A DNA stretch of 64,000 nucleotides from Gemmatimonadota bacterium (GCA_025358055.1 JANYKV010000087.1:12797-76796), one strand, 5' to 3'; counted from the stretch's first letter, positions 17,194 to 38,122 are shown. Notes: generated by a model not told the origin, from the letters alone. Numbers and translations: made by a program.

Positions 17194-17250
17194 GCCTCCG
17201 TGGAAGGGTCATCCCGAACCGGGCGGGCTGGGCGATTGATCGAGACGCCA

Positions 17251-17679
17251 CTAGTCATCGGGCGCCGCGGGCTCCGGCTGTATCGGGCCAGCGTTCTCGG
17301 CCCGAATGTCGGCGAAGATGAAGTTCTCCGATGCTACGGGCGCGCCGGCCAACGGGCCCTGAAGAAATTGTTCGTCGCTGATGCGAGCATGAAGCGCGTT
17401 ATCGGCGAAGTCGTCTCGTAACGCCTCCACCGTAGTATGGAACCGCACGATCTCCTCGGCCATGGTCGCCAGCCGAGGAGGCGCAAATTCGCCTCCGCGG
17501 AGCATCGTACGCGCGTAACCGACGACGCTCGTCATGTGCCAAAGGACCTCGTGGGGCGTACGCACATGGGAGCCCGCCTGAAAATCAGCGAAGTGCTCGG
17601 GCGCCCCACGAAGCGCCTTTTGCGTACGATACGCGAGCGCGGCGGCAAAATGTTGAAGCAAACGGCGAGAGTCGGTCAT
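17251..17679 (-). pseudogene. DinB-like protein with apparent in-frame internal deletion
   Basis: LAYRTQKALRGAP...RTPHEVLWHM family signature; LQGPLA is joined directly to GAPVASENFI, so the usual DxxTHxGQL..LRRL segment is missing. Confidence 0.55.
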
Positions 17680-17885
17680 GAGGCGATCAGATGAATGTAA
17701 CGATCGGTACCCATCCGGGCACCGGTTTTCGAACCCGCTCTCAATTGGGCCACCGTGGACTTGCCGGACCCACTACGGCCATCGATCGCAACGAGGAGCC
17801 GTTGAGAATGGCTTCGCGCACGCCGGCGAACCTCGGCGAGGACGACTTGGACGGCCAGCTCAGTCTCGGGGGTTACGCTATTCAC
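17676..17885 (-). pseudogene. Truncated P-loop (uridine kinase-like) gene stub
   Basis: LLVAIDGRSGSGKSTVAQL, then unrelated sequence and a stop; only 69 aa. Confidence 0.65.
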
Positions 17886-17900
17886 CGGAGGCCTTGCACA

Positions 17901-18275
17901 CTAGCGAGCGGCGTAAAGCATTGCTACGAGCGCAATGAGGAAGAGCGGCATGGCCGCCAGGGCCATCCCGACGACCAGGCGAGCATCAACCATCCGCCCC
18001 AGCCGGCGTCGCCTGATGGCAAAGGCGACTCCAACGAGAATCATCATGCCGCTCAGGGCCGCGCCGGCCACCGTGAGGCGATTGCTCCCTGGACTCCGAC
18101 CGAGCGAGGCGGCTTGGGCCATCCCGATGATCGTGGGGAGCACCAGGGCAACGAACACCGGAAGTGGTGTCAGGAGGAGGTATACGCGCTCGCCGGGAGA
18201 GATGTCTCCGGTCGAAGCCCGCGACAAAACCACACCGAGCAACACCGCGATCCCAAAGGTGATCAAGGCAATCAT
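17901..18275 (-). CDS. Hypothetical membrane protein (about 4 TM)
   Basis: Alternating hydrophobic segments from ATG 18275. Confidence 0.55.
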   Translation of the reverse strand: MIALITFGIAVLLGVVLSRASTGDISPGERVYLLLTPLPVFVALVLPTIIGMAQAASLGRSPGSNRLTVAGAALSGMMILVGVAFAIRRRRLGRMVDARLVVGMALAAMPLFLIALVAMLYAAR

Positions 18276-18555
18276 GGCATGACATCGATCGCGAGGTCCA
18301 CGCTGACAGGAAGGGGCTGCCACCCATGTCTGAATGTCGCCTATAGCGCTCGACACCCGTCGTTACAAGGCCCACCCAAAATATGAGCCGCAGCGCCGGG
18401 CGCCAAATCAGCCCTCCTCGCGGACGATCACGTCGCGTCGCGTGTAGGCCGATGATGAGGCTGAGGGAAGACGAGAATGGCCCGAACGGAGGACAGCGAA
18501 ACGAATCAGAAAAATGGTGGAGTCCCCTCGGAGTGAATGATTCAGTCGGCCCAGA

Positions 18556-19134
18556 TCAGCTGGACGCGCGTTCGGCGGCCCAACGCCGCTCGGCTTTCCG
18601 GCGAATCGCAGGCAGCAGAAGGAGGCGAATGCTGACGATCCCAAACCGGGCCCAGCGCCAGTACCTACGGAAGTTGCTCCGGGCCTGGGCATCCGTCGCG
18701 GCCGCGCGCGTCTCGTGGGTGAAGCGCGTGACGGCAGGACCGAGCAGATCGGTTTCGAGCGTCCAGGCGATCTTTACCTCGTTTGGCTCCGCGTAGGCTA
18801 CGAATTGTTCGGCCGGCAACGGTGTGAAGCCGGCGTCGGCCTGCCAAGGCTGACAGACCGCTCCACAAACAATCAAGCGGCCCGGCTGTTCGACCAATAC
18901 CACCCAACCCATACGCTTCATCTCCGCCAGCAGACCCTGTGGCTCTCGCGGCGCGGACGGTGCGGAACGCATAAGCACCTCCCGAAGTCGGAATATGGCA
19001 CGCACGAGAGCCGGCGACTGGAGATCGAAATTGGCCGCGACCTCCATGACGAGAGGGGCGGGGGCCTTGATGGTGGTGTAAAAGCGCTCCCGCACATCCG
19101 GCCTAGGGATAAACGGATCAAGCGGCGATGACAT
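18556..19134 (-). CDS. Hypothetical protein (DUF2867-like)
   Basis: LDPFIPRPDVRER..IKAP...KIAW...ETRAAATD..AR..FRRYW conserved-looking pattern. Confidence 0.7.
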   Translation of the reverse strand: MSSPLDPFIPRPDVRERFYTTIKAPAPLVMEVAANFDLQSPALVRAIFRLREVLMRSAPSAPREPQGLLAEMKRMGWVVLVEQPGRLIVCGAVCQPWQADAGFTPLPAEQFVAYAEPNEVKIAWTLETDLLGPAVTRFTHETRAAATDAQARSNFRRYWRWARFGIVSIRLLLLPAIRRKAERRWAAERASS

Positions 19135-19259
19135 TTGATGACGAATGGGAGACTCACCCGCCTCCAATTGAGGTGCATCGATTGTTGGCTGCCCGGCGGC
19201 GCGGCGCGGGATCCGCAGGGGCTACGGAGAATTCGATTGGGAAATGTTGCCGCTGGTGA

Positions 19260-19565
19260 CTACGCCCATTTCTTTCCGATAGCATCGAGGTTCGACCGGC
19301 CCAGGTCTTCAGGGGTCATTGCAATTCGAAATTCGACCTCTGCATTGAACGTGAGGAACCACGGTTCGGCCAGAGCTGGAACATCTGAGGAGTCCTTCAC
19401 GTTGACCACGAGGGTGCCACCACGCCGACCGTGGTGTTCCGAAAAGTAGGCGGCTTCCGGCTTGATGCTTTCAAGGATTCGTTGAATCTTCTCTCCGACG
19501 GTTCCATTGCGAACGGCGGAATTAAAGGGCTCGAGCGGGAATTGGACGTGCATTAACATGCGCAT
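19260..19565 (-). CDS. Small conserved protein (DUF3303/GYD-like)
   Basis: KPEAAYF..GRRGG..V...PALAEPWFLTFNAEVEF..AMTPEDL; GGAGG RBS. Confidence 0.8.
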   Translation of the reverse strand: MRMLMHVQFPLEPFNSAVRNGTVGEKIQRILESIKPEAAYFSEHHGRRGGTLVVNVKDSSDVPALAEPWFLTFNAEVEFRIAMTPEDLGRSNLDAIGKKWA

Positions 19566-19665
19566 TGGTGGCCTCCAAGACAGGCTGGGTGGGGTTTGCG
19601 AACGAGCAGTGGCAATCAATATAGAGCGCGGCCGCGGCGGCGGTTAGTGTAGGTACGGCCGTGAA

Positions 19666-20199
19666 TCATGGCGGCAGTTGGGTCCACATCTGGCGGATGA
19701 TCCGCCACTTTCCGCTCGAGTCAGGAGCCACCAGCACAAGGTCAGTCGACCGGCTGGTTTGAGCGGTTTCCTTCCCGTCTTTCTGATACACCCATCCCAG
19801 TGTGGCTGTTCCCCGAAAGAAGGCTAGATCGAGCGTCCCGTCGATCTCGGTGATCTCACGAGTAAAACCGGTGATGCGCGTATGGGACCCGTCCGGCGGC
19901 CACCAGTAGGCCCGAATTGCTGAGAGCCCTTCCACCGGGGTCGCGCCGGGTGGGAGAAGAATCGCTCGGGGATGGAACAACCGGAGGACCGCCGCGGTGT
20001 CATCACGAAGCCACGCCTGCACGAACGCCGTGTCGAGGGCACCAATGGCAGCTCGATTGGTCTCGGACAAGGTCCGTGAAACGGCTGGTCGCTCGGGCCC
20101 GCACGTGGCAAGACTCAGCGAGAAAATCACCAGTGTGAGAAGGAGGGGGGCACCATTCCGCTGCATGGCGCGGGACCCGGTTAAATCGCGGACCTTCAT
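19666..20199 (-). CDS. DUF4440/SnoaL (NTF2-like) exported protein
   Basis: Signal/lipobox-like segment, AILLPPG..PVEG..AIRAYW, GKWRIIRQMW; AGGAG RBS. Confidence 0.78.
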   Translation of the reverse strand: MKVRDLTGSRAMQRNGAPLLLTLVIFSLSLATCGPERPAVSRTLSETNRAAIGALDTAFVQAWLRDDTAAVLRLFHPRAILLPPGATPVEGLSAIRAYWWPPDGSHTRITGFTREITEIDGTLDLAFFRGTATLGWVYQKDGKETAQTSRSTDLVLVAPDSSGKWRIIRQMWTQLPP

Positions 20200-20269
20200 T
20201 GTGGGGTCTCCTTTGCGTAGGGGCAAGAGTTCTCGTGTCCCGAGGTCGTCCAATGCTGACGCGCCTGCG

Positions 20270-20722
20270 TCAGCGAGAGCCTTTCAACATTACACCTAGT
20301 CGGAGAGGGGCAAGATCCGGTTCCACCCAATTGGCACGAGCTTGCTCGGTGAACAAAGTATCCCTGGTGTAGAATTGCTGAAGAACGTCTTTGCCGGCGA
20401 GCGGGCTTGCCACCAGCCTCACGATCCGTGCCTCTAACGTCAGGTGTGCGGGGCAAGTGTCGAGAAACTCGGACAAGAGGTGGACATACGCGCGCGTAAT
20501 CGTTTCATGGTAGCCCTGCGTCGCAGAGTTTGGCGTTCCATGCGTTTGGTTCAACCGGCGAATGCCATTCCGCAGGCGTGTCAGGGCTTCCGCCGAACCG
20601 TACCGAGCAACATGCCATATGCCGACCGATAAGTGTGCGGAGTGCGTCCATTCGTCCCGACGCAGAGTGCATCGAGCGAAACGATCGACGAAATCATCGA
20701 GATCCCCGAAGAACGCGGGCAT
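20270..20722 (-). CDS. Conserved hypothetical protein
   Basis: EWTHSAHL...GYHETIT..Y...ARANWVEPDL; GGAGG RBS. Confidence 0.75.
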   Translation of the reverse strand: MPAFFGDLDDFVDRFARCTLRRDEWTHSAHLSVGIWHVARYGSAEALTRLRNGIRRLNQTHGTPNSATQGYHETITRAYVHLLSEFLDTCPAHLTLEARIVRLVASPLAGKDVLQQFYTRDTLFTEQARANWVEPDLAPLRLGVMLKGSR

Positions 20723-20862
20723 TGTCCTCCAACGATTCACGGCCCGCAAGCCGGCGACGGCTTGACGGATACGAGAACGGGAGAGGCCACCGCTTGGACC
20801 AGCGGCAACAGGTGAAACAAGGTCGGCATCAGTGATTCCGTGGGGTTGGTCTCAAGAGTGTG

Positions 20863-20898
20863 GGAGAACGCTGGCGTCAGCTGCACGCATCATTAGAC
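20863..20898 (-). mobile_element. Collapsed attC-like remnant
   Basis: Minus strand reads GTCTAAT-GATGCGTGCAGCTGACGCCAGC-GTTCTCC: degenerate R'' and R' boxes around a TGCAGCTGAC core. Confidence 0.4.
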
Positions 20899-21031: not shown

Positions 21032-21283
21032 CTAGGCGGACTTCACCAAGCGGATGAGGTAGAGGAGCAACAGTGCGCCGACCACGGCGGTGACCAAGCT
21101 ACCCACGACCCCATAGGTAGCGATGCCCAAGAGACCGAACACCCAGCCGCCGAGGAAGGCGCCGACCACGCCGACGACAAGATCGCCGAGCACACCGAAG
21201 CCGCCTCCCTTCATGATCTTACCAGCCAGCCAGCCGGCGAGAATGCCGATACATAGAAAGAGAATGATGCTCTGTGTGGCCAT
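21032..21283 (-). CDS. GlsB/YeaQ/YmgE family membrane protein
   Basis: GILAGWLAG..MKGGGFG..GDLVVGVVGAFLGG. Confidence 0.92.
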   Translation of the reverse strand: MATQSIILFLCIGILAGWLAGKIMKGGGFGVLGDLVVGVVGAFLGGWVFGLLGIATYGVVGSLVTAVVGALLLLYLIRLVKSA

Positions 21284-21487
21284 CGGAGGCTCGCTGGATT
21301 GGAGGAAGAGAGAGATCTCACCGGCCGGTACGAGCCGGGTTCCGATCTAGATGTACGGGGATTTTCCAGGAGACGCAAGGGGTCTCCCAAGGCCGCTGTA
21401 CGCCATTCTAGGCGGCCCCGAGCCCGCGCCACGGCTCCATTTGATTCCCACCACCATCCAGTCCGGCTCGACCTCGCCTCAAGGTAT

Positions 21488-22333
21488 CTAGGCGCCGAGC
21501 CGGCCGGCCAAATCATTGAAGTCTGTCGCCGAAATGTCAACCGACGAATCGGCCCTCAAGTCAGGCGTTCCAGTCGGCCCATACTCCAATGGCCGGGCGA
21601 CGAACGCCGTCTTCAGCCCCGCGCCTTTCGCGGCGCGCAGATCGCCGGAGTGGGCCGCTACCATCATAACGTTCGCCGGCTTGAGGTCAAGAATGTCCGC
21701 GGCGGACTGATAGACTTCGCGATCGGGCTTGTAGTGACGAACGAGCTCGGCGCCCAGAACGCAATCCCAGGGCAACCCCGCGTGTTTCGCCATGTCCGTG
21801 ATCAGCGAGATGTTGCCGTTCGAGAGGGGCGCGATGATGAATTTCTGCTTCAACCGGGTGAGTCCACCAACCGCGTCGGGCCATGGTCGCAACCGATGCC
21901 AGACGTGATTGAGCGCCTCGATTTCGGCCTCTGAAAGCCCGGCGATGCCAAAGTCGACCAACATCTTGTCGAGGGTCATCCGATGGAGGGCATCGAGCTT
22001 GGTCCACGGCAGCTCACCACTTCGGACGCGGTTCATGCTCGGGCCGTACCCGGCGCGCCAGGCATCGGCGAACTTCGCCCCGTCCACCTTCAGGCCCTTC
22101 CGTTTCGCTAACGCCTCCACTTCCAGCGTCACCGATGTGCGCCAGTCGACGACGGTGCCGAAGACGTCAAAAACGAGCGCCTTAACCGATGGTAGTTGAG
22201 GTTTCGACCGCTCGCCGCTCGGTGCGCTGCCGGACCTCATCGCGCGGCCGCCGCGAAACTCCGAGCCGACCGCCGCGAGGGCGCTGGCCTGCAGAAGCGC
22301 TCGGCGTGAAACTGTTGCGAACCCACGGGTCAT
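21488..22333 (-). CDS. Haloacid dehalogenase type II with Tat signal
   Basis: SRRALLQ Tat motif; FDVFGTVVDW, LSNGN, YKP, MVAAH..DL; GGAGG RBS. Confidence 0.88.
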   Translation of the reverse strand: MTRGFATVSRRALLQASALAAVGSEFRGGRAMRSGSAPSGERSKPQLPSVKALVFDVFGTVVDWRTSVTLEVEALAKRKGLKVDGAKFADAWRAGYGPSMNRVRSGELPWTKLDALHRMTLDKMLVDFGIAGLSEAEIEALNHVWHRLRPWPDAVGGLTRLKQKFIIAPLSNGNISLITDMAKHAGLPWDCVLGAELVRHYKPDREVYQSAADILDLKPANVMMVAAHSGDLRAAKGAGLKTAFVARPLEYGPTGTPDLRADSSVDISATDFNDLAGRLGA

Positions 22334-22419
22334 GATTCCTCCGGTTCACCCGACTCCCGAACCGTGCGGCTCGGTCGGCGATCGAATGGTGCGTCACGCG
22401 TGCGGCGCCTCGCCACCCT

Positions 22420-22968
22420 TCACGCGAGAAGCGGGAAATAGCGGTCCTGTAGCAAGCGCACATGATGCAGCTCATGACCGGCAATGTGAAACGCCAACCC
22501 GCGGGCCGTTGCCCGGTAGCCGTTCACTTCGCCGGACCGAGTCCACTGCGCCGGCGAAAACCCGCGGAAGAGCGCCACGGATGCTGCGCGGACTGCCCTG
22601 TAGTCACAGAGAATCTCCCGCCAAGGACGCATTTCCGCCTCGGCGTTTGTCGCATAGAGCTTCTCGTCAAAACCCGGCAGTGACTGAGCCTCACCTCGCG
22701 CAAGACACAGAGCCCGGTAGGCAAAGATCCGCTCATCGTCGACCACGTGCCCGATAACGTCTTTCAGCGTCCACTTGGATGGGGCGTACCGGATGCCCTC
22801 CAGCCGCGCCTCCGGCAGAGCCTGCAAGAGTGTCAGCGTTTGGTCGGCGAGGGCCTCGAACACAGACACCGCATCAACCCCCTGCACCTGTTCGATATCG
22901 GCCTGAGCGTAGTCCGCATACTCACCAGGTAGGGGACGACCCGAGGGGTGGTTCAGCGCGTGGGCCAA
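22420..22968 (-). CDS. DinB family protein
   Basis: RP..GEYADY, YAPSKWTLKDVIGHVVDDERIFAYRAL, LPGFDE, IAGHELHH; TTG 22968 with GAGG RBS. Confidence 0.85.
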   Translation of the reverse strand: MAHALNHPSGRPLPGEYADYAQADIEQVQGVDAVSVFEALADQTLTLLQALPEARLEGIRYAPSKWTLKDVIGHVVDDERIFAYRALCLARGEAQSLPGFDEKLYATNAEAEMRPWREILCDYRAVRAASVALFRGFSPAQWTRSGEVNGYRATARGLAFHIAGHELHHVRLLQDRYFPLLA

Positions 22969-23179
22969 TGGATACCTCGGACTCGCCAAAGGGTGAGCTT
23001 GCCCCCAACCGGAGACAATTATAAGCAGAAGGTGTGCACCTCCTGCCTCCGTTGTTCCGTGACCAGCGCAGGGCATTACCGCGCCGTCCCCGGCCGTTCC
23101 GATGATCGCGTTCGCCGAACCGTTGTCGGTCCGTCGCCTCACACCGGCCTCACGATGGCTGGGCAGGATCCATGACCCC

Positions 23180-23989
23180 TTACGACACGGTGAACTCGAG
23201 GACCATCCCGTGTTCGTAGTGGCGGCGGCCATCGCTGGCGGCAGGGACCTGGCAGAGAATGAAGTAACGCCCAGGTTTCAGGTCGACGGCCAGCCACAGT
23301 TCCCGCCCCGGCGCGAGGTCTCCCACGCCACCGACGGGATCAACCGGTGGCCGACCGACCTCACCGCCTTTAAGCCACGCGAGATAGTCCTGAATCGTGG
23401 TCGTGTCGGTGAGGCGGAAGATGTCCGCCTCGTGGGGCTCGGCCCCGTCGTTCCGGATGTGGAGGATCTGAGGACCGGCAAGCAGCGGGGCCGCAAGGCG
23501 GAAGCTATAGTCCCGGAGGGAAAGGTCCGCCGTTGCAGCTGGCGGTAGCGCGCTCGGCCCCGTCGCGGCCGTCACTTCGAGGTCATGGGCCATCCCCAGT
23601 CGCAGGTGGTCCCCTTTCCAACAGACCACGGCATACCGTCCTAGGCTCAAGGCGAGCCAGACCGTCGTCGAGCGGCCGGCCGGAGTCAGGCCCGGGCCGC
23701 CCTGGTCCGTGGCGAAGGAAGGAAAGTCCACCTGGGCCCGCACGCTGTCGACGTAGGAGCCTGCACTCCCGCGAGGGTCAGCGAAGCGGACGAGCAGAGC
23801 CTCATGGACGTCGCGCCCCTGGTTCCGGAGCTCCAGGCGGACCAGGCCGGCCGGCACGGATGCGGGCATCTCGTACCCATACTCGTGGGCGACCAGCGTA
23901 ATGTTCGACGGGGAAGGGGGAGTCGGCCGACAGGCTAGGATGGCCCCCGCGAGGGCCAGGCCCCTGGCACCCCGGAACACGCGAGTCAT
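23180..23989 (-). CDS. Lipoprotein with two cupredoxin-like domains
   Basis: ILAC lipobox; each half has N-x-G-x3-H and GRY..C...H..GM type-1 copper ligand sets. Confidence 0.7.
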   Translation of the reverse strand: MTRVFRGARGLALAGAILACRPTPPSPSNITLVAHEYGYEMPASVPAGLVRLELRNQGRDVHEALLVRFADPRGSAGSYVDSVRAQVDFPSFATDQGGPGLTPAGRSTTVWLALSLGRYAVVCWKGDHLRLGMAHDLEVTAATGPSALPPAATADLSLRDYSFRLAAPLLAGPQILHIRNDGAEPHEADIFRLTDTTTIQDYLAWLKGGEVGRPPVDPVGGVGDLAPGRELWLAVDLKPGRYFILCQVPAASDGRRHYEHGMVLEFTVS

Positions 23990-24033
23990 AAGCGGTCCAT
24001 TGGATTCAGGGCTCAGAGAGAAAATTGAGAATT

Positions 24034-24350
24034 TCACGCACCAGGCGCTCGCCTTGCGCCGTAGCGAAGATAAACTGTGCCTGCGCGGCGCCCGGCAAGA
24101 TCGATCGCGATCACACGAAACCCCGCGTGAACCAACACGTAAGCTTGGTCGCCCCAACTCGCCTTATCGAAGCGACCACCATGGGCCGACACGACGCCAC
24201 GCGGCCCCGTTCCATACTGATCCGCCGAAACGACACCCCCACCGGCGGTTGGGATCGACACCCTTTGCTGAGCGTGCAACGGGGGACGTCGACAATCGGG
24301 GCCGCGCCAAGCACAGCGACGATTCCCAAGCTGGTCGCGATATACCGCAC
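24034..24350 (-). pseudogene. Alpha/beta hydrolase gene fragment
   Basis: GVVSAHGGRFDKASW..QA..LV.AGFRVIAID in one frame, a signal-peptide-like start in another frame, no C-terminal half. Confidence 0.6.
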
Positions 24351-24352
24351 GC

Positions 24353-24637
24353 TCAGAGTTCCTTGACCTCCACGCGGTCGGCGATGCGCGCGCGCGGATT
24401 CTGCATGATTGCTTTAGCCGGGCCATCCCAGATCCGCTGCATTGTGCGCAGGAAATCCTCCGCCGGACCAATGCCCTCGAACTCCAGGTCGATCATGACG
24501 TAGTTGGGGTCGTCCTGGAGACGAAGGACCTGGTAGCGCCGCACCCCGGAACCCTTTCGGTCGGCCGGATCATTGTCGAACGCCTGTTTCCATTTCTCGA
24601 AATTCGGAACGGAGTGTTCGATCCTGACGACAATCAT
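24353..24637 (-). CDS. Small ferredoxin-like fold (ABM/cyclase-like) protein
   Basis: RIEHSVPNFEKWKQAFDNDPADR..SGVRRY...DDPNYVMIDLEF. Confidence 0.8.
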   Translation of the reverse strand: MIVVRIEHSVPNFEKWKQAFDNDPADRKGSGVRRYQVLRLQDDPNYVMIDLEFEGIGPAEDFLRTMQRIWDGPAKAIMQNPRARIADRVEVKEL

Positions 24638-24688
24638 CCCAATCCCTTTCGGCTCAGCCGTCCGCTCTCAGGTTACGCTACCCACATA

Positions 24689-24916
24689 TCATGCGCCGCG
24701 AAGGCCAAAGGCATCAGTCACCGAGGGCACCGCACTACTTGCGCGTTTCGGAGCCGCGGACTTCGCTCGTCTTCGGGCTGAAGTACGCTTCCAAGGCGGC
24801 GGTCGGTAGCAACCCACAGATCTTCGGCGGCGGAGTCGCCTGGGCGTATGTGGGGTTTCCCATCCCTGCAAGCGGAGACCGAGTGCGACAATTGTGACGA
24901 TGGAGAGCGCTCTCAT
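24689..24916 (-). pseudogene. Probable frameshifted secreted-protein fragment
   Basis: AAGGAG RBS and signal-like MRALSIVTIVALG; protein-like YAQATPPPKICGLLPTAALEAYF continues in another frame. Confidence 0.35.
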
Positions 24917-25072
24917 TGGGGGATTCTCCTTCGGTCGAGCGCTCCGGTCAGGTGCACGACTCAGGTGATTGCGAGGCCCCGAAGGGCTCCGACTTATGTG
25001 ATGGGCCCGGTTTGCTTCGTCGGTCCTTCGGGCTTTCTCCCAAGGACAGAAGGGCGACCCCGTAGGGTCTGA

Positions 25073-25968: not shown

Positions 25969-26000
25969 GGGCTACCTCTCGGTTCGAGGATCGATTGTCG

Positions 26001-30242: not shown

Positions 30243-30355
30243 GCGCTCACATCTTCGGTCGGCCTACCAGGCCCGCGGTGAGCGGCAGCGCTGTTCAACT
30301 GTCCGCTCCAACCACATGGAAGGATGCCGGATCAAAGGCCGGGGACTCGAGGACC

Positions 30356-31516
30356 TCACAGGTAGCTCAGCCACACATCGCTCCGTCGCTGCTTGAGCGC
30401 CGCGAACCACCGGCAGAGCGGATACATCGCGACCACGACGGCTACCCACGCCAGGTAGACGACGGGCAGCGAGTATCCCCACCCGGGTGGCGCCGTGAAG
30501 GGATAGTGCGCGAGGTCGGGGGACTCGAACATCCAATGCGCCGATCCATAGCGCACGTAGCAGGTGGCGACGGCCAACAGGTGGATCAGCGGAAAGTGCA
30601 ACAGATAATAGAACAAAGGCACCTTGCCGATCACGAGCGCAGGCCGGAGCATTCGTGGCGTTCCGCGATCCACCGCCCAGAGAAAGACCACCGCCGGGCC
30701 GAGCGTCATCAGCAGGAACAGCAGTGACGGTGGGTATTTGATCGTGTTGAGGAACGAGAGCACGGTGAACAGCGGCGTCCCTTGATGCGTCCAGGGCGAC
30801 GGGTCGCCGTAAATATTGATGCCCCGAATCACGACAAACGCCAGAGTCAGGGAGAGTCCCAGGCGCAGTAGAAAGGTCCGGCGGCGATCGGTGTCCCAGC
30901 GGTAGACCTGTCCGAGGCCGAATCCCACGGCGGTGACGCCGATCCAGGGAATGAGCGGATAGGCCACAAACACCACATGCTGCGGGCTGTTCAACACGAA
31001 ACCCGGTGAATGGAGAATGGACCAGATCGGGTTCGCCGACTGCACCGAGTCGAGGAGGTTGTGGCCCGCGATCAGAACGACGCCGAGTGCGGTGACCACT
31101 GCCGCCGGCAGGCGAACGAGCGCCGAGAGCGTGATCATCGCCCAGCCGAGCGCCCAGATGACGAGCAGCATCGTCACCCGATAGTCGACGTTGAATTGGT
31201 AGGAGAAGCAGCGAAGCACCCCAAGTTCCAGAAAAATCAGCCAGAGGCCTCGCGTGAGCAGAAATCGGGAGAGTTCCGCCGGGGACTTCCGCGAGAGCGA
31301 GAGGAACGCGCCCGTGCCGGTGAGTAAGAAGAACACCGGCGCGCAGAAGAAGGTGATCCAACGCGTGAGGAACAAGCCGGCGCTGGCGGTGGCCAGATTT
31401 GTGGGACTCTGCCCGGGGATGCCGAAAAAGTCCCGGGTATGATCGAGCGCCATGATGATCATGATCATACCGCGCACGACGTCGATGGATTCGAGGCGCT
31501 TCCCGTTCTCCGCCAT
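30356..31516 (-). CDS. DUF1624/HGSNAT-like membrane acyltransferase
   Basis: RLESIDVVRG..MALDHTRDF, TRWIT.FCAP.F, YPLIPWIG, KYPPSL. Confidence 0.88.
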   Translation of the reverse strand: MAENGKRLESIDVVRGMIMIIMALDHTRDFFGIPGQSPTNLATASAGLFLTRWITFFCAPVFFLLTGTGAFLSLSRKSPAELSRFLLTRGLWLIFLELGVLRCFSYQFNVDYRVTMLLVIWALGWAMITLSALVRLPAAVVTALGVVLIAGHNLLDSVQSANPIWSILHSPGFVLNSPQHVVFVAYPLIPWIGVTAVGFGLGQVYRWDTDRRRTFLLRLGLSLTLAFVVIRGINIYGDPSPWTHQGTPLFTVLSFLNTIKYPPSLLFLLMTLGPAVVFLWAVDRGTPRMLRPALVIGKVPLFYYLLHFPLIHLLAVATCYVRYGSAHWMFESPDLAHYPFTAPPGWGYSLPVVYLAWVAVVVAMYPLCRWFAALKQRRSDVWLSYL

Positions 31517-31542
31517 TGTCCCTCCTGTGATAGCCTCCAGGC

Positions 31543-32955
31543 TTAGCGCGCGACGTTCACCACCTGAATCGTCGTGTATTCCTTGAGGCCGTCCACGTTG
31601 AACTCGACCCCGATTCCGGAGGATTTCACTCCTCCGAACGGTGCCATCGGGTGGAGGCCGCCATGCTGGTTGACCCACGCCGTACCGCACTCCAGCCGAG
31701 ACGCGAGGTTCGCGGCTTCCGCTGAATCATTGCCCCACACGGAGCCCCCGAGCCCCACGTCGAGCGAGTTCGCGCGGGTGAGCGCCTCTTCGACGGTCCG
31801 ATACTTGAGGATCGGGATCGCCGGCCCGAACTGCTCCTCCTTCACCAGGAGCATGTCGTCGGTCGCGTCGGCCACCACCGTGAGTGGGTAGAAGAAGCCC
31901 GGGCCTGCGGGACGAACGCCGCCGGTCACGACCCGCGCGCCTTTCGCCCGGGCCTCGTCGACGTATGAGCCCACCTTGTCGCGCTGCATTTCGTTCGTCA
32001 GCGGACCGACGAGGTTCTTGGGATCCATGCCATCTCCCACCGGGATCTTCGACACGAACTCGGCGAACTTGGCGACAACGTCTTCGTACTGGCTCTCGTG
32101 AACGTACAACCGCTTGAGCGCGGCACAGGTCTGGCCGCCGTTGATGAAACAGCCCCAGAAGAGCTTCTCGAGGAGCGGCTCGATGGCGGTGCCCGGTAGC
32201 ACGATCCCGGCGTCGTTGCCGCCGAGTTCGAGGGTGAGGCGCTTCAAGGTATCGGAGGCGCCGGCCATCACCGACTTGCCGGTCTTCACCGACCCCGTGA
32301 ACACGATCTTGTTGATGTCGGGGTGGGTGACCATCCGGGTCCCGACCTCCGCATCACCAGTGACCACGTTCACGACCCCGGGCGGCAGAACCGTGTTCAT
32401 GAGCTCGACCAGCCGGAGGGTTGAGAGCGGGGTGTACGGCGAGGGCTTGATCACGATAGTGCATCCGACCCGCACAGCGGGCATGATGTGCCAGGTCGCG
32501 ATCATGAGCGGCCAGTTCCAGGGCGTGATCGATCCGACGACGCCGACCGGCTTTCGACGGACAACGATGCTCCCCTTCGCGTCGTCCTGAATGGTCTCTT
32601 CGGGAAGGGCCAAGCTCGCGGTGACTCGGGTCCACGCAACGCAACCGCCGGCCTCGAGGTTGGCTCCCGGCCCACTCTGGGCCTTCCCTTGTTCGCGCGT
32701 GACCAGCGTCGCCAATTCGCCGGCATGTTGCTGGAGGACGGTGGCGACCTCGTTGAGTTTGGCAACCCGTGCGGCGTCGGGGAGCGCAGACCACGCCGGG
32801 AACGCTCGCCGTGCCGCCTTGACAGCTTGATCGAGGAGTTCCACGCTGCCCTGGGGACAAGAGGCGACCAAGGTCCCGTCGGCGGGGTTTCGAATCTCGA
32901 AGGTCTGGTCGGGCGAGACGGCCTTGCCGTCAATCGTAAGGGAATACGTTTGCAT
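31543..32955 (-). CDS. Aldehyde dehydrogenase
   Basis: ITPWNWP, KPSPYTP, FTGS, LELGGND, NGGQTCAA, EEQFGP. Confidence 0.92.
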   Translation of the reverse strand: MQTYSLTIDGKAVSPDQTFEIRNPADGTLVASCPQGSVELLDQAVKAARRAFPAWSALPDAARVAKLNEVATVLQQHAGELATLVTREQGKAQSGPGANLEAGGCVAWTRVTASLALPEETIQDDAKGSIVVRRKPVGVVGSITPWNWPLMIATWHIMPAVRVGCTIVIKPSPYTPLSTLRLVELMNTVLPPGVVNVVTGDAEVGTRMVTHPDINKIVFTGSVKTGKSVMAGASDTLKRLTLELGGNDAGIVLPGTAIEPLLEKLFWGCFINGGQTCAALKRLYVHESQYEDVVAKFAEFVSKIPVGDGMDPKNLVGPLTNEMQRDKVGSYVDEARAKGARVVTGGVRPAGPGFFYPLTVVADATDDMLLVKEEQFGPAIPILKYRTVEEALTRANSLDVGLGGSVWGNDSAEAANLASRLECGTAWVNQHGGLHPMAPFGGVKSSGIGVEFNVDGLKEYTTIQVVNVAR

Positions 32956-33150
32956 TCGTCATGGCTCCGATTGGAACAGTTGAGTACTGGTCATGCGTTG
33001 GTGAAGGTTGGTGGTCCCCTCGTCGCCCCGAGGGGCGCCCAGGTCGGCCCTCAAAAAGGGACCCCTCTTCCTGGAGGAAGGCCCGGCCCAGACAGAGCAA
33101 AGTCACCCGCGAGGGTAACGGGAGCGAGTTGGAGCACGAGCGCGACGGAG

Positions 33151-33939
33151 TCAGCGTGCCGGCAACACCAGCAGTCGGATTTGGTTGACCCACAAGCGGA
33201 CCTCATGGTCTAGGAAAAGCCTTCCGAGTTCCGCGGATGAATACGTGGGGTCACCGTCGACGCCCGTGGTCTCCCACACACCACCTGGGGCGATCTTGTC
33301 CTTCCGCACCCACCGCGCCTCTCGATCGAGAAACAGGAGCTTCGATGTATCCGGAATGTGCGCGTGTTGACCGACGGGCATGCCGTGGGCTTTCAGATAC
33401 CGATTGACCTCTTCGTCATATGGGCCACCGTCGGCGAAGTAGACGTGGATGCCCTTGGGTGCCCACGATGCCTCCAAGGACGCGGCCACGTTCTTGAGGG
33501 CGGTCCAACCGCCACCGTGTTCGCCCATCAGGATCACGTTGCGGAAGCCTGCCGCAATGGCGCTCAGGGCAACCTCACGAGCGACCGCGCCGAAGGTCTC
33601 GTCGGTGACGCTGATCGAGCCCGGGAACGCCATGAGGTCGTCTTTGAGGACGGGATCACCGGTCGGGGCAAACGGCATCGTGGGATAAACCAGGGCGTCA
33701 CCAAGCTCCTCGGCGATACGAAGGGCGACGTAGCGGGCAAGGATGTTGTGCTTGCCGAGCACCATATGGGGCCCGCCTTCTTCGACGCTTCCTGCGAGAT
33801 ATAGCGCGGTTGTATGGCCGGCCGCGATGGCGTCGCGCACTTCGATCCAGGTGAGGTCTTCAATAAAGACCGATGGGGACTGGGCTCGGGTGACCGACCC
33901 GAAAGCAAGGCTGAGCAAAGTGCAAGCGAACATTTTCAT
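33151..33939 (-). CDS. Exported creatininase-family protein
   Basis: IEDLTWIEV, GSVEEGGPHM, FPGSISV, GEHGG, HAH..DTS, GVDGDP; signal peptide. Confidence 0.82.
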   Translation of the reverse strand: MKMFACTLLSLAFGSVTRAQSPSVFIEDLTWIEVRDAIAAGHTTALYLAGSVEEGGPHMVLGKHNILARYVALRIAEELGDALVYPTMPFAPTGDPVLKDDLMAFPGSISVTDETFGAVAREVALSAIAAGFRNVILMGEHGGGWTALKNVAASLEASWAPKGIHVYFADGGPYDEEVNRYLKAHGMPVGQHAHIPDTSKLLFLDREARWVRKDKIAPGGVWETTGVDGDPTYSSAELGRLFLDHEVRLWVNQIRLLVLPAR

Positions 33940-34346
33940 GGCCTTCTCTCCTCCGCGACCGAGCTGCCGGGTACCTCTAGTTGGGCCTTGAGCTCCACGC
34001 TGATGACATGCAGTGGCGTCGGCCCGACGTTCTCGAGTGAGTGCGGCGCTAACGGCTCACCCCAGAGCACGGGCGGCGGGCTCTGGAGGCTGCCTGAGGC
34101 GCGGGTGTCCACAAGGACCGTTCCCTCGGCGTCGCGCCGCACAAACGCACTCCAACTGATGATGTAGTGCACGGCGGGCCACCGATGCGTGTGAACGGGC
34201 GTGCATCCCCCAGGAGCGATTTGCGTATCCAGCACCCGCACCCGGGCATTTTCGAGCAACAGGCGGTGCTGCTCAGGCGCCGCCACAAGGGCGTCGAGAT
34301 CCGGGGTCCACCGTGAGGCAGATGACGTGCTCTCTTTGGGCGTCAT
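33936..34346 (-). CDS. Cupin-like protein
   Basis: LDALVAAP..HRLLLENARVRVL...HTHRWP...PHSLENVG. Confidence 0.82.
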   Translation of the reverse strand: MTPKESTSSASRWTPDLDALVAAPEQHRLLLENARVRVLDTQIAPGGCTPVHTHRWPAVHYIISWSAFVRRDAEGTVLVDTRASGSLQSPPPVLWGEPLAPHSLENVGPTPLHVISVELKAQLEVPGSSVAEERRP

Positions 34347-34351
34347 GTGTA

Positions 34352-34374
34352 GGTGAACGTGTGAGTTTAGCGGC
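34352..34374 (-). mobile_element. attC-like right-arm remnant
   Basis: Minus strand GCCGCTAAACTCACAC-GTTCACC, 5 bp before ATG 34346; resembles the 3' end of classical attC sites. Confidence 0.5.
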
Positions 34375-34418
34375 ATCCGGAGGCTGTCCCCGCGGGAACG
34401 ACGGGTCGGGTACCGCAT

Positions 34419-35282
34419 TCAAGACCTTCCGAACCTCTCGTCAAGATAATCGAGCAATTCCCCGGGGAGCCATTCATGAAACTCCTCGCGATCAAAACCC
34501 TCGGGATCCGTTGACGGAAGGAAGTTCGCAAGTCTCATGTGGAGCGGGAACGGACTCAAGAACGAAAAATGACCGGCGTTCGCAATAACTCTGCAGGTGA
34601 CCTGACCCCTATCAGGAACACCGTTCAGCACAAGGTCCGCGTGCCATCGAGGAGTAAACGCGTCGTGCTCGGCGATCAGCATGAGAATCGGAACGGTCAC
34701 ATTGCCTAACGAACCTTCGGGCAGGTACCAGGCGGTAGCCGGCGCGAGTAGAACAAGGGTCCGAACGCGTGGATCCGGCACCACTTCCACTCTTTGCCGA
34801 CTTTCCGACCAAGGTGTGCCGCCCGCCACTGCCAGAGCCGTGTAGCCCCCCATTGAATGTCCGATGATTGCGACATTATTTGACCGCACGCAAGCGCTGA
34901 ACTGGGCGTCGGAGGCAACCGCATCAATCGCGAGCCGGACATGCCTCGGGCGGTTCTCCAGGTTTTCGTGAGCGTTTGCCAATTCGTTGTTGTTGCGGTT
35001 GTTCCCAGGGTGTTCGAGCAAGGCAACCACGTAGCCGCTCTTCGCCAGATGCGTACCGATGGTTCGATAGAGAAGATGCGAACCGCCGCTTCCATGGGAA
35101 ACCACTACGAGAGGGAATCGGCCGTCAGCAACAGGGGCGTCCGGGCTGACGTCGATGGTATATGCCCCAAACGCAGTGGGGGTCGGTGGTAGGCGTGTCG
35201 GGTACAGGACGAGGGCGGGAAACGAAACGTCCTTTGTGTCATCTTTCACCTGCATTTGACGGCTCCCAACGAACATGCGCAT
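34419..35282 (-). CDS. Alpha/beta hydrolase (predicted dienelactone hydrolase-like)
   Basis: PLVVVSHGSGG, GHSMGG nucleophile elbow, AGHFSFL; preceded by a perfect GTTAGGT core at 35303-35309. Confidence 0.85.
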   Translation of the reverse strand: MRMFVGSRQMQVKDDTKDVSFPALVLYPTRLPPTPTAFGAYTIDVSPDAPVADGRFPLVVVSHGSGGSHLLYRTIGTHLAKSGYVVALLEHPGNNRNNNELANAHENLENRPRHVRLAIDAVASDAQFSACVRSNNVAIIGHSMGGYTALAVAGGTPWSESRQRVEVVPDPRVRTLVLLAPATAWYLPEGSLGNVTVPILMLIAEHDAFTPRWHADLVLNGVPDRGQVTCRVIANAGHFSFLSPFPLHMRLANFLPSTDPEGFDREEFHEWLPGELLDYLDERFGRS

Positions 35283-35335
35283 GCGCGTACTCCACGTTTA
35301 ATACCTAACCCCAAAATGGTATCAACTGTGCTCGC

Positions 35336-36181
35336 CTACCGAAGCGCGCGCGCCAGTGCCGCCGGTCCCACACCGCGGAAGATCGTGTCGTGCGCGAGAT
35401 CTGGGCGGGGCGCGTACACCCACGCGAGCCCCCGCAGCGGCAGGGTGCGCAGCAGCGCCGCGAGGCGTGCCGTCCCGGTCGTGATGTCCGCGACATTCGA
35501 GCTGGCCAGATAGAGCGTGCGCGGCGCAGAGTCGAGGGCGGTTAGGCGCGCCGGAGCCGAATCTACGAGTGCGCCGCCGTTCCACCACACACTCGGGTCG
35601 AGAGCGATGTAGTGGTCGAAGAGCCGCGGCTCCGCGAGGAACGTCTCCAGAACGAACAGGCCGGCGAGCGACTCGCCCACGATCGCTCGCTCCTCGGTCG
35701 TGCGGTAGCGAGCTCGGACCGCCGGGATGAGTTCGTCGCGGAGAAAGAGTCGGAAGGCGGCCGAGCCGCCCACCCGCTTCGCGATCGCGCTGTCGGCTGC
35801 GACGCGCGTGGGCCCGGTGAGATCGCGGCGGCGCTCCGTATTCGGTATCCCGACGACAATCACCGGCCGGATCGCGCCCAGAGCGATCAGGGAGTCGACC
35901 GTGTGCACCACGTGCGGAAAGTCCTCGTCGATGCCACCATCTGGCATGTAGAGCACCGGCAAGTGGGCTACAGATGGCGCGTGATAGCCCGGGGGCATAT
36001 GCACGTTGACCGACCTGGCCTCGCCGAGCGCTCGGGAAACGATCGTGAATGTGTCGTGCGCAGGTACCGGATCCTCGCCCGGCGGCGTGCCCTGCGCGCC
36101 GAGGGGGCCCGCCAGAAGGGCGAGGGCCACCAGACGTCCGAGCGATGGCCAGATCTGGAAGCGGCTCGGCGTTATCGTCAT
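35336..36181 (-). CDS. Exported putative esterase (IroE/Fes-like)
   Basis: PVLYMPDG, RRRDLT, GGSAAF..FL.DEL.P, GESLAG, PSVWW. Confidence 0.85.
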   Translation of the reverse strand: MTITPSRFQIWPSLGRLVALALLAGPLGAQGTPPGEDPVPAHDTFTIVSRALGEARSVNVHMPPGYHAPSVAHLPVLYMPDGGIDEDFPHVVHTVDSLIALGAIRPVIVVGIPNTERRRDLTGPTRVAADSAIAKRVGGSAAFRLFLRDELIPAVRARYRTTEERAIVGESLAGLFVLETFLAEPRLFDHYIALDPSVWWNGGALVDSAPARLTALDSAPRTLYLASSNVADITTGTARLAALLRTLPLRGLAWVYAPRPDLAHDTIFRGVGPAALARALR

Positions 36182-36229
36182 CGATAGTGTGGTCGGCGAA
36201 GATGCGTGGCAGCGGCTCTCAGCCGCCGT

Positions 36230-36257
36230 GCCCAATAAGTCGCAGTCAGCTGCAACG
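36230..36257 (-). mobile_element. Collapsed attC-like remnant
   Basis: Minus strand CGTTGCAGCTGACTGCGACTT-ATTGGGC; shares the TGCAGCTGAC core with 20876-20885. Confidence 0.4.
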
Positions 36258-36314
36258 AAGGTCATCGCTGCCTCCTCGCACCTGAGCTGCTGCCGTTCGA
36301 AGCGAGGCCATCGA

Positions 36315-36797
36315 TCACGAGGTTCCTTGCTCGGCGGACCACGTCGCGATCTGAGCGTGGTGCCCCGACCACGCTTCCCACACCGACTCCGCCCAGGCTC
36401 GCGCCGCCGGCGCAATCGAATCGTCCGACCCGGACAACGGTATGTCGACGACCGTGCGAGTCGACCTGAAGGATGGCGGGTGAAGCCAGTGAAAGTCCCT
36501 CTTGCGACCAAGAAGACGCGGGACGCCTACCGGCCGCAGTCGCACGAGATAGTCGTGAAGGTTGAGAAGGTGAACGGCCACCGACCGGATTGCCTGCGGA
36601 TTCGGCCGGCCCGGATGGGTCACCGCGTAGGCGTCCACGCACATTTGGCGCGCGGCCTGAAGCCTCGGCTCGATTGAGAGGATTCCGAGGAGCTCCCCAT
36701 ACCGCGCCCAGCATCCGGGAGCGGAGGTCATGTAACGGTGGATGGGCCCGTCAATCTTGGCGATCTTGGCGCCACATCCAATGCACGGTTCTGACAT
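36315..36797 (-). CDS. DUF5946-like protein
   Basis: CIGCGA..GPIHRY..APGCW..YG...VDAYAVTHPG...SVAVHL..W...VWEAW. Confidence 0.8.
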   Translation of the reverse strand: MSEPCIGCGAKIAKIDGPIHRYMTSAPGCWARYGELLGILSIEPRLQAARQMCVDAYAVTHPGRPNPQAIRSVAVHLLNLHDYLVRLRPVGVPRLLGRKRDFHWLHPPSFRSTRTVVDIPLSGSDDSIAPAARAWAESVWEAWSGHHAQIATWSAEQGTS

Positions 36798-36833
36798 GTC
36801 GTCCCCAGGATCCCTGGGCTAGGCAACTGTTGG

Positions 36834-37616
36834 CTACACGTCCGCCACGCTGAGTGGACGCGGCTGACGACCATCGACGTCGGTGAAACCGTACTCCTCA
36901 GCCAACGCCGCCGCAACCAGGACGGCGCCGGTCCGGCGCGAAACGTGGGGGTCACTGGCCAATGCCGCCACGGCTCGGCCGATGAACTCTGGACTTTCGG
37001 AGTGGCTCAAGTCGAACACCCCGGCAGCCAGCACCGCCTCGGTGCGGACGAGGCCGGGATACAGCGACACGACGGTCACACCGTGGGATTTCAGCTCGTG
37101 CGCCATATCCGTCGTCATCTTATCGGTCGCCGCTTTCGCCACACCGTATAGCGTATTGGCGATGTGCTTCTGGGCGGCCCAAGAAGAAATCTGCACAAAC
37201 AGGCCGCGGCGCGCCTCGACCATCGTACGTGCTGCGTGCTGACTCGCAACGAACGCCGCGCGCACGCCCGCGGTAACCATCGCGTCCCAGCGCCATGTCG
37301 GTTGCTTCCAGAACGGTGCAATGAACGTGAACTGGCCATCTTCAACCATTCGTTCGTAACCGCCCCACGCGACGTTGACGAGAATATCGAGTCGGCCGGT
37401 CGTGTCTCCGATTTGTCGGAAGGCCTTCGCGACGTCTAGATCGTTGGTGTGGTCGCATGCGATGGCCGTGATGTCGGAACCGAGTTCTGCGTGGGTGACA
37501 CTTCGACCGGTTGCGAAGACTTTCGCACCGGCATGGGCAAGGCCAAGCGCAACTCCGCGCCCGACCCCACGACTCGCGCCCGTGACCAGAGCGACTTGTC
37601 CCTGAAGTGTCGTCAT
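36834..37616 (-). CDS. SDR oxidoreductase (DHRS1-like)
   Basis: TGASRGVG, YGVAK (YxxxK), PGLVRTE, SESPEFIGRAV. Confidence 0.9.
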   Translation of the reverse strand: MTTLQGQVALVTGASRGVGRGVALGLAHAGAKVFATGRSVTHAELGSDITAIACDHTNDLDVAKAFRQIGDTTGRLDILVNVAWGGYERMVEDGQFTFIAPFWKQPTWRWDAMVTAGVRAAFVASQHAARTMVEARRGLFVQISSWAAQKHIANTLYGVAKAATDKMTTDMAHELKSHGVTVVSLYPGLVRTEAVLAAGVFDLSHSESPEFIGRAVAALASDPHVSRRTGAVLVAAALAEEYGFTDVDGRQPRPLSVADV

Positions 37617-37645
37617 GCTCGATTGTCTCCGATGCTGCTTCGGCT

Positions 37646-37770
37646 GTCTAACGAGTGGCATTCTGCTGTAAGGGCAGTAGGCCGGCGGGGCGGCCCACTG
37701 TTACACCAATGATATCGCACGGCCCCACCGACCGTAAAGCCGCCTTTGGCAGCAGAATGCTTTGTTCGCT
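37646..37770 (-). mobile_element. Complete attC-like recombination site (125 bp)
   Basis: Minus strand AGCGAAC-AAA-GCATTCTGCTGCCAAAGGC...GCCCTTACAGCAGAATGC-CACTC-GTTAGAC. Imperfect palindrome with one unpaired extra base on the first arm, perfect GTTRRRY core, then RBS and ATG of the SDR gene. Confidence 0.72.
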
Positions 37771-37859
37771 GGCACCAGTCCGATGTTCCCTGCAGACGCT
37801 CGGCGTGGACACGGCGCGTTACTGGGCGTGACGTTGGGCGCTCGCACCTGCCGCTACGG

Positions 37860-38005
37860 ATTTGGACCGGCAATGGTATGGATCGATGGCGTGCTTGGAT
37901 CTGCGCATGGTCCGCAGCGGACATAGGCGTCACCGGTTGTCCCTCCAACACCGAGTTGTCGCGCATGAGTTCCTCAAACCCCGGCTTCGAGAAGCAGGCA
38001 CGATG
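37860..38005 (-). pseudogene. C-terminal gene remnant (possibly cupin-like) upstream of the attC
   Basis: FSKPGFEELMRDNSVLEGQPVTPMS...QARH reads as a protein tail with no N-terminus; boundaries approximate. Confidence 0.35.
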
Positions 38006-38122
38006 AATGGAATGCGAGTGGCCGGTATGAAAGCGGACTATTCTCGGTGGCGCGCTTGCTAGAAATAGGACACTGATGCATCATTAGCCTCCTCGTCCCA
38101 TTAGCGCACCAGGAGACATACC

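Follow-up and report, generated by a model that had tools for sequence, protein, structure and literature searches.

The 21-kb run between positions 17200 and 38100 of the window (the whole stretch of 64,000 nucleotides analysed here, from a Gemmatimonadota bacterium) probably preserves eroded remnants of a few integron cassettes. We read it as a chromosomal mosaic in which small genes of stress and detoxification type are gathered, at least part of them having entered as integron cassettes, and give this reading a probability of roughly 0.55. A decayed cassette region is a known kind of element, and the remnant is a faint and ordinary example of it because integrons are very common in the bacterial order concerned.

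The gene content of the region comprises the following groups:

17251-20749, minus strand: six small ORFs, one weakly DinB-like, one SnoaL/DUF4440 and four without a family.
21032-27044, minus strand: small genes, namely Transgly_assoc, HAD, DinB_2, a 325-aa orphan, a 94-aa orphan, DoxX, a 110-aa gene, a 159-aa orphan and DoxX_2.
27815-37661, minus strand: larger genes, namely metallo-beta-lactamase, HbpS-like, Pyr_excise, acyltransferase, aldehyde dehydrogenase, creatininase-cupin-hydrolase, esterase, DUF5946 and SDR.

Between 17200 and 38100 a codon-usage gene caller placed 23 ORFs, 22 of which run on the minus strand, and the Pfam families found are unrelated to one another, in agreement with the original prediction of a run of short, unrelated and nearly all minus-strand genes. 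Matches to Pfam at E<=0.001 were obtained for 16 of the 30 ORFs tested across the region, and they fall into the families DinB_2, SnoaL/DUF4440, Transgly_assoc, HAD, DoxX, DoxX_2, metallo-beta-lactamase, HbpS-like, Pyr_excise, acyltransferase, aldehyde dehydrogenase, creatininase, alpha/beta hydrolase, esterase, DUF5946 and SDR. Several of the genes are 390-470 aa long, and the three genes for creatininase, cupin and hydrolase abut or overlap by 4 bp in an operon-like manner. Codon adaptation is weak (0.157 per residue against 0.214 in the flanks, p 0.009), and the spacers between same-strand genes are long, with a median of 195 nt against 30 nt genome-wide. No tRNA gene, which would mark an island, was found at the region border. 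When the region was compared with the genome by BLAST, a 60-nt element at 25002-25063 was the only piece of it that recurred.

A complete integron consists of an intI gene, whose product has a specific extra domain, together with adjoining attI and attC sites. The attC site is recombined by the integron integrase as a folded single strand; it carries the inverse cores R'' (RYYYAAC) and R' (GTTRRRY) at its two ends, paired L'' and L' boxes, and unpaired (extrahelical) bases on one arm. In the order sampled, which we take to be Gemmatimonadales, IntI scored above the TIGR02249 cut-off in 179 of 301 genomes (about 60%), so that the lineage is not integron-poor. Eight family-level relatives have periodic repeats 3' of intI with GCCTAAC...GTTAGGC ends, conforming to the RYYYAAC and GTTRRRY core consensus, and their aligned sites show compensatory changes at 11 of 17 predicted pairs. 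The arrays in these relatives contain attC hairpins of 87-169 nt, with intI upstream of and co-directional with the array, and in 82 of 105 cassettes the longest ORF lies on the intI strand. A search for paired cores on the 5' side of intI gave noise only, the arrays proving to be 3' of the gene. Gemmatimonadota are listed in a review among the phyla with integrons (PMC8618304), and full-text searches by group name or for CALIN and IntegronFinder returned no paper describing the integron layout or the IntI frequency across the order; both that frequency and the shared direction of intI and array may be worth surveying properly.

All attC models were trained only on real cassette-array sites from these eight relatives. 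A lineage attC covariance model (R1) was run with filters off on the 64-kb window, and in 80 kb of control DNA its noise reached 11.5 bits, apart from one likely stray attC; a right-arm model (R2) reached at most 9.6 bits in controls. The E-values of the models are rough, because calibration was shortened. Position weight matrices (PWMs) for the left and right arms were scanned over the genome (about 8.9 million positions), with a reporting threshold of 8 bits for the right arm. A Smith-Waterman scan against real arms was dropped as too noisy, since GC-rich parts of the arms match coding DNA and similar local scores occur inside coding DNA across the window. Rfam, which holds no attC family, gave 0 matches in the window. 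The candidate sites are these:

37646-37770, minus strand: full-length mutated attC-like hairpin (R1 11.6 bits, E 0.75; right-arm PWM 13.6 bits).
30262-30324, minus strand: short (63-nt) degenerate attC-like hairpin (R1 16.2 bits, E 0.053, the top match in the window).
26005-26029, minus strand: right-arm (L') relic CCGCAGGTTAAGCGCAGTGT, without a GTT core (R2 13.5 bits, E 0.006).
20863-20898, minus strand: collapsed site, a left arm GTCTAAT-GA-TGCGTG-CAGCTG-AC followed directly by a core-like end GTTCTCC.
35303-35330, minus strand: weak right-arm relic CAGTTGAT...GTTAGGT (PWM 10.1 bits).
28882-28906, minus strand: weak right-arm relic CAG-TTAAGC...GTTCGGC with a 1-nt deletion (local score 27).

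The hairpin at 30262-30324 sits in the spacer that runs from the acyltransferase stop at 30356 to the Pyr_excise start at 30242, and its R1 score exceeds every control match but the one likely stray attC. It retains a 6-bp L-box pair, a bulged G and an AC spacer, and both R cores are mutated (TCCTTCC, GGTAGGC). This hairpin was absent from the list of sites originally proposed. The right arm claimed at 26001 was recovered at 26005-26029, between the stop of the 159-aa orphan gene and the start of the 110-aa gene; it is the only R2 match in the window below E 0.4, and its local score against real arms is 38, a value of 30 being reached at only 5 of 3193 other genes. Equally, the collapsed site claimed at 20863 proved to contain a strong left arm, the PWM score of 19.9 bits at 20875-20898 being the fourth best in the genome.

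The full attC-like palindrome proposed at 37646-37770, which ends 30 nt ahead of the SDR gene ATG at 37616, is present, and its covariance-model score of 11.6 bits is at noise level. Its outer arms are GCATTCTGCTG/CAGCAGAATGC, followed after 5 nt by GTTAGAC as R'; R'', with the sequence AGCGAAC, is degenerate, and there is no bulged base. The L''/L' boxes form an 11-bp perfect pair of the CTGCTG/CAGCAG type, resembling those of the relatives' attC sites, and among 468 right-arm matches genome-wide the one at 37646-37670 is the sole match whose 11-nt L box pairs 11/11 upstream. Folding is not clearly better than that of shuffled sequences (z -1.9 and -0.2). A gapless inverted-repeat search did not list this site.

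The remaining proposed sites are fainter. The arm ending in GTTAGGT at 35303, in the 53-nt spacer from the esterase stop to the hydrolase start, is a weak relic, with a best local score of 27 against 99 real right arms, where 50 of 3193 other genes reach 26. The one ending in GTTCGGC at 28882, 63 nt ahead of the start of the metallo-beta-lactamase gene (27815-28819), is similarly weak, with a best local score of 27 and values below the R2 and PWM thresholds. At 34352, the proposed GTTCACC arm yielded neither a right-arm PWM match of at least 8 bits nor an R2 match at E<=10; what speaks for it is a resemblance by eye to a collapsed arm on contig C151 of the same genome, and it lies outside the stretch covered by the upstream-score test described below. 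The left-arm stub near 26624 and the collapsed site at 36230 were not recovered either (no PWM match of at least 8 bits; R2 4.4 bits).

Taken across the region, the relics are without exception located within spacers and on the gene strand, and the top two R1 matches of the whole 64-kb window (30262-30324 and 37646-37770) come from minus-strand spacers of the region. The relics also keep the family-specific spacing, R'' being followed after 2 nt by L'' and L' after 5 nt by R'. Upstream right-arm scores of at least 8 bits occur at 3 of 21 region genes, compared with 34 of 3193 genes elsewhere and 5 of 9 on C151, the positive control, the distribution of right-arm scores ahead of region genes lying higher than that of the 3193 other genes (Mann-Whitney p 0.003). 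No enrichment was seen for left-arm scores downstream of region genes (p 0.10). The region ranks fifth of 1968 strand-windows for arm matches, and 22 of 1746 full-length strand-windows hold as many. No region site reaches significance at genome scale, the whole-genome R1 search listing sites on other contigs only. A plain pattern search found paired RYYYAAC...GTTRRRY cores in no region spacer, and no spacer has both inverse cores R'' and R' in one site. In about 15 of the 21 region spacers no relic was detected, among them those within 17251-20749, where the sole PWM match (18902-18926, 10.1 bits) is located inside an ORF. The claim of eroded cassette sites is thus supported for about four to six spacers, most spacers showing no relic, and the further claim of a single array of about 30 cassettes is not supported, given the relic-free spacers, the operon-like genes and the homologues without attC described below.

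Gene order in the region shows no synteny with 30 relatives, and the proposed stubs, searched genome-wide by BLAST, are not repeated in the genome. The acyltransferase and esterase have 77-78% identical homologues on one contig (C6) of genome G015 without attC alongside, and none accompanies their homologues in G015, G025 and G029. Of 300 other genomes of the order, one carries a homologue of the 159-aa orphan, and a metagenome scan found no relative of it. Homologues of the 110-aa gene occur in 30 of the 300 genomes; at 24 loci examined no neighbour is common with the window, except for one locus with a homologue of the flank's beta-lactamase-like gene, and attC or right-arm relics are absent from 23 of the 24. 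In genome G243, two attC sites are followed 650 nt later by an 81%-identical homologue of this gene. An attempt to define the empty site by flank synteny failed, the flanks being patchily conserved between genera and the sample holding no genome of the same genus.

The absence of an integrase, also part of the original prediction, holds for the window, and no intact intI is present in the assembly (93% complete), where the best TIGR02249 match scores 97 bits against a cut-off of 265; tblastn with the IntI of three relatives gave no match on the window's contig. An IntI C-terminal fragment of 27 aa, 67-78% identical to the IntI C-terminus, lies at a contig end (C76:22763-22843). Clearer clusters of attC sites lacking integrases (CALINs) are present on other contigs, and contig C50 has an attC site at its start (78-215). 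The CALIN on C151 (about 6.6-13.6 kb, minus strand) has three R1 matches of 20.6-28.7 bits and five R2 matches within 7 kb; erosion has spared its right arms more than its left arms, and some spacers are collapsed to a right arm only. Nine of its ten ORFs have a Pfam family, including four VOC and one DUF4440, and the HD type also occurs.

It is unlikely that the region is an ordinary variable accessory-enzyme region shaped by general horizontal transfer and rearrangement, in which GC-rich sequence resembles pieces of attC by chance. Each match is weak, the two R1 scores of 16.2 and 11.6 bits standing against 20-45 bits for the real sites elsewhere in the genome and 11.5 bits in control DNA; a nearest-neighbour scan gives similar local scores in coding DNA throughout the window, the fold z-scores of the palindrome at 37646-37770 are unremarkable, the cargo is unlike the relatives' cassettes, and two genes have homologues in non-cassette contexts. 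Against this, independent tests converge on one strand and on spacers, with the R2 match at E 0.006, the fourth-best left arm, the unique 11/11 L box and the upstream enrichment (p 0.003), and the relics preserve the family-specific spacing. Less probable still is that an integrase encoded elsewhere inserted single cassettes one by one at secondary (non-att) sites and that these, never having formed an array, later decayed. Off-target insertion of cassettes by IntI has been described (bioRxiv 10.1101/2022.09.11.507474; Cury et al. 2016, PMC4889954), the genome has other attC sites and an IntI fragment, and the relics stand 2-7 kb from one another, dispersed among genes seemingly vertically inherited; yet the relics are co-oriented with 22 of 23 genes, as an array predicts and separate insertions need not be, and no intact attC is left to mark a recent event.

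Under the favoured reading of a partly cassette-derived block, cassettes would have been moved, as in the relatives, by the IntI tyrosine recombinase through attC hairpin sites. What would survive of those sites in the region is a full-length mutated hairpin, a short hairpin and three or four half-sites, each of them lying shortly ahead of the next gene. The genome assembly has no intact integrase, and the region sites would therefore no longer be kept intact; with the sites decayed, the genes would therefore be fixed in the chromosome, with transcription presumably starting at promoters of their own within the long spacers. The region would then be a relic of cassette insertion rather than a working array, and some of its genes need not be former cassettes. 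A succession of three stages may tentatively be imagined, from intact, orphan-rich arrays through half-eroded CALINs with recognisable enzymes to fragment-only blocks like this one; if it were true, integron decay with selective retention of useful cassettes would be a regular route by which Gemmatimonadales gain stress and detoxification genes. By itself the region matters little, integrase-less and decayed cassette clusters being a described class, and its value is that of a data point on cassettes turning into ordinary chromosomal genes: the lineage-specific model still recognises relics of sites once general signatures such as the inverse cores have vanished, and enzymes appear to make up more of the retained cargo than of that in live arrays.

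Set against the complete integrons of relatives, in which intI is followed by a co-directional 3' array, the region has no intI, recognisable attI or intact attC anywhere in the window. Its cargo also differs, 16 of 30 ORFs having a family and several reaching 390-470 aa, whereas among the relatives' cassettes orphans predominate (a Pfam family in 16 of 105; median length 150 aa). It resembles the CALIN on C151 in its single strand, short single genes and cargo type (DUF4440 in both), but its best matches reach 16.2 and 13.5 bits and are distributed over 17 kb. A CALIN is operationally defined as at least two covariance-model attC sites clustered within 4 kb, the origins offered being loss of intI, rearrangement and secondary-site insertion, and isolated attC sites may reflect genetic degradation of cassettes (Cury et al. 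2016, PMC4889954). In the window, the attC-model search gave at best 16.2 and 11.6 bits with R1, neither a confident call, and these two full-length candidates are 7.3 kb apart, unlike a CALIN; as in a CALIN, there are co-oriented single genes with attC-derived sequence in between and no integron integrase nearby. If it ever was a CALIN, the region is what remains of a decayed one.

The window is the stretch 12797-76796 of contig C158 in a genome assembled into 193 contigs (4.43 Mb, 93% complete), and in the region 17200-38100 a gene caller based on codon usage and trained on long ORFs of the same genome finds 23 ORFs, 22 of them on the minus strand. These ORFs have a median size of 199 aa, against 317 aa genome-wide, are separated from same-strand neighbours by a median spacer of 195 nt, against 30 nt genome-wide, and have a codon score of 0.157 per residue versus 0.214 in 36 flank ORFs (p 0.009). 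A Pfam match at E<=0.001 is obtained for 16 of 30 tested region ORFs, and the families are unrelated: DinB_2, SnoaL/DUF4440, Transgly_assoc, HAD, two DoxX types, metallo-beta-lactamase, HbpS-like, Pyr_excise, acyltransferase, aldehyde dehydrogenase, creatininase, alpha/beta hydrolase, esterase, DUF5946 and SDR. The original prediction, which described these genes as short, unrelated and almost all minus-strand, is thus confirmed on this point. No tRNA genes and no Rfam families are found in the window. An element of roughly 60 nt with a GGCCCTTCGGGCC-type hairpin lies directly downstream of a DoxX gene (25002-25063) and is repeated on contigs C84, C131, C145 and C154 at 77-88% identity; it has no Rfam match.

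Of 301 genomes sampled from the same order, 179 have the integron integrase IntI above the TIGR02249 cut-off, a tally that takes in G212 and G101, both flagged unpublished. In these relatives, intI often lies at a contig end with its 3' end toward the break, and a co-directional array is present at eight of the 10 places where the 3' side was fetched (loci L041-L049). No repeats occur 5' of intI in eight relatives, and 3' of intI there is one per 350-1200 bp. The repeats are imperfect palindromes of 87-169 nt with a GCCTAAC-type core at the start and a GTTAGGC-type core at the end; eight family-level relatives provide 117 sites on the intI strand. In 82 of the 105 cassettes, the longest ORF between adjacent sites shares the strand of intI; the median cassette length is 550 bp and the median ORF 150 aa. 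Transposase genes of the Mutator and IS110 families occupy cassette positions in two arrays (L041:13208-14233 and L044:2916-3950). A passage of Cury et al. 2016 (PMC4889954) names co-directional intI with a 3' array the "inverted integron-integrase group"; full-text literature searches returned no paper describing this layout or the IntI frequency in the order.

All search models were built from the relatives' sites, with window sequence used in none of them: a covariance model (R1; 113 positions, 21 pairs) from alignment A1 of 54 non-redundant sites, a sequence-only right-arm model (R2), and position-weight matrices for the left and right arms. RNAalifold detects compensatory changes at 11 of 17 predicted pairs in the relatives' aligned sites. 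When R1 is run with filters off on both strands of the 64 kb, its two best matches fall in spacers inside the region, the others being short hairpins with E of at least 0.8.

Probable relics of attC sites in the window
30262-30324, minus strand, spacer inside the region: best R1 match, 16.2 bits, E 0.053
37646-37770, minus strand, spacer inside the region: second-best R1 match, 11.6 bits, E 0.75
26005-26029, minus strand: R2 match, 13.5 bits, E 0.006, the sole one below E 0.4 in the window
20875-20898, minus strand: left arm, 19.9 bits by matrix, GTTCTCC end directly after
35303-35330: weaker right arm, 10.1 bits
28882-28906: weaker right arm with a 1-nt deletion

In a negative control of 80 kb from the array-free side of intI in four relatives, noise reaches 11.5 bits with R1 and 9.6 bits with R2, so that 30262-30324 and 26005-26029 stand above it and 37646-37770, by model score alone, does not; R1 also gives one control match of 20.8 bits, which may be a stray attC. 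In the positive control, made up of sites on other contigs of the same genome, R1 scores range from 20 to 45 bits and R2 scores from 8 to 14 bits. At L035:13930-14091 (genome G222), an isolated attC-like match of 20.8 bits is seen about 14 kb from intI, on its 5', array-free side. Among 468 right-arm matches of at least 8 bits genome-wide, with the complement sought 15-170 nt upstream, only 37646-37770 has a perfect upstream complement of the 11-nt L box (10/11 for the intact attC at C50:190-215), and its spacing (R''-2 nt-L'', L'-5 nt-R') agrees with the family. The left arm at 20875-20898 ranks fourth of about 8.9 million genome positions and, together with the GTTCTCC that follows, bears out the collapsed site predicted at 20863.

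The assembly contains no intact intI, and nothing in it passes the TIGR02249 cut-off for integron integrases (best 97 bits against 265), a result from a draft that cannot establish absence from the genome because arrays break assemblies. Searches by tblastn with three relatives' IntI return XerC/D-like genes on contigs C8 and C78 and a 70-aa fragment on C174. Within the final 83 bases of contig C76, 27 aa (22763-22843, locus L006) are 67-78% identical to the IntI C-terminus, and a different gene stands where the rest of intI is expected; either intI is truncated here or the assembly breaks, and the fragment is oriented in a way compatible with C76 continuing into the start of contig C50. There, 78 nt from the contig start, lies the best attC in the genome (C50:78-215, L058; intact, 44.7 bits). 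A DinB gene and a second site, at 841-908, come after it, and an array probably runs on past the contig break. A clearer integrase-less cluster than the region, on the minus strand of contig C151 (6600-13600, L056), is a clear yet degenerate CALIN.

R1 matches in the C151 cluster
9368-9464: 28.7 bits
12370-12449: 24 bits
13506-13570: 20.6 bits

This cluster also has five R2 matches and several right-arm-only spacers, and a family is assigned to 9 of its 10 ORFs (methyltransferase, DUF4440, four VOC/glyoxalase proteins, DUF3224, an HD protein and a Kelch protein). Given the cargo types of C151 and C50, the region's cargo is nearer to the decaying arrays of the same genome than to live arrays.

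No site is able singly to pass a genome-wide threshold. In the region, 3 of 21 genes have a right-arm score of at least 8 bits within 150 nt upstream, compared with 34 of 3193 for the genes elsewhere and 5 of 9 for those of the C151 array; median upstream scores are -0.5 in the region versus -4.8 elsewhere (Mann-Whitney p 0.003), and a nearest-neighbour score of at least 26 against 99 real arms is reached by 3/21 versus 50/3193. This enrichment is real and modest in size, since the region ranks only fifth of 1968 in arm matches per 20.9-kb strand-window (after C151, C50, C12 and C99), six or more matches occur in 22 of 1746 full-length strand-windows, and left arms are not enriched downstream of stop codons (p 0.10). 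An ordinary variable region in which the attC-like pieces are chance matches is a rather unlikely alternative.

Several observations speak against a single array of about 30 cassettes: about 15 of 21 spacers carry no relic, and the creatininase, a cupin-like ORF and a hydrolase are arranged like an operon, with ends that abut or share 4 bp. Genes of 390-470 aa are atypical of the relatives' cassettes, whose ORFs, mostly orphans, have a Pfam family in 16 of 105 cases, against 16 of 30 here. Homologues 77-78% identical to the acyltransferase and the esterase occur in G015:C6, and G025 and G029 likewise carry homologues of the acyltransferase; all of these have short, ordinary spacers and no R1 match beside them. 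Only three window proteins, one of them outside the region, have a homologue in the relatives' array-side sequence (roughly 157 kb, 10 loci). In favour of a cassette origin, besides the relics, are the cargo of C151 and C50 and the distribution of the region's genes, for which no synteny is found with 30 relatives, a sample that takes in G013, flagged unpublished. Among 300 further genomes of the order, a 159-aa orphan has a homologue in one. A 110-aa gene without Pfam family (25636-25968) has homologues in 30 of them and is patchy in distribution yet well conserved, with identity of up to 87% between genera. Of the 24 loci examined for this gene, a single one shares a neighbour with the window, namely a homologue of the beta-lactamase-like gene in the flank, which suggests a highly mobile single gene; in G243 two attC sites precede its homologue by 650 nt, and SnoaL homologues lie among attC sites at 2 of 24 loci. 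Separate insertions of cassettes at secondary sites would agree less well with the strand that the relics share with nearly all genes, and are improbable.

The reading we favour, with a probability of roughly 0.55, is that of decayed ex-cassettes interspersed with other accessory genes in a mosaic. Direct observations are the relics with their strand and placement, as well as the lineage context; the relics would descend from functional attC sites, which loss of integrase activity may have left free to decay, and the genes would now be read from their own promoters. In the passage of Cury et al. 2016 (PMC4889954) that defines it, a CALIN lacks intI and has two or more attC sites that a model calls and that cluster within 4 kb. 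The region falls outside this operational definition and works like the end state of a CALIN, a faint example of an already known class of integrase-less cassette clusters.
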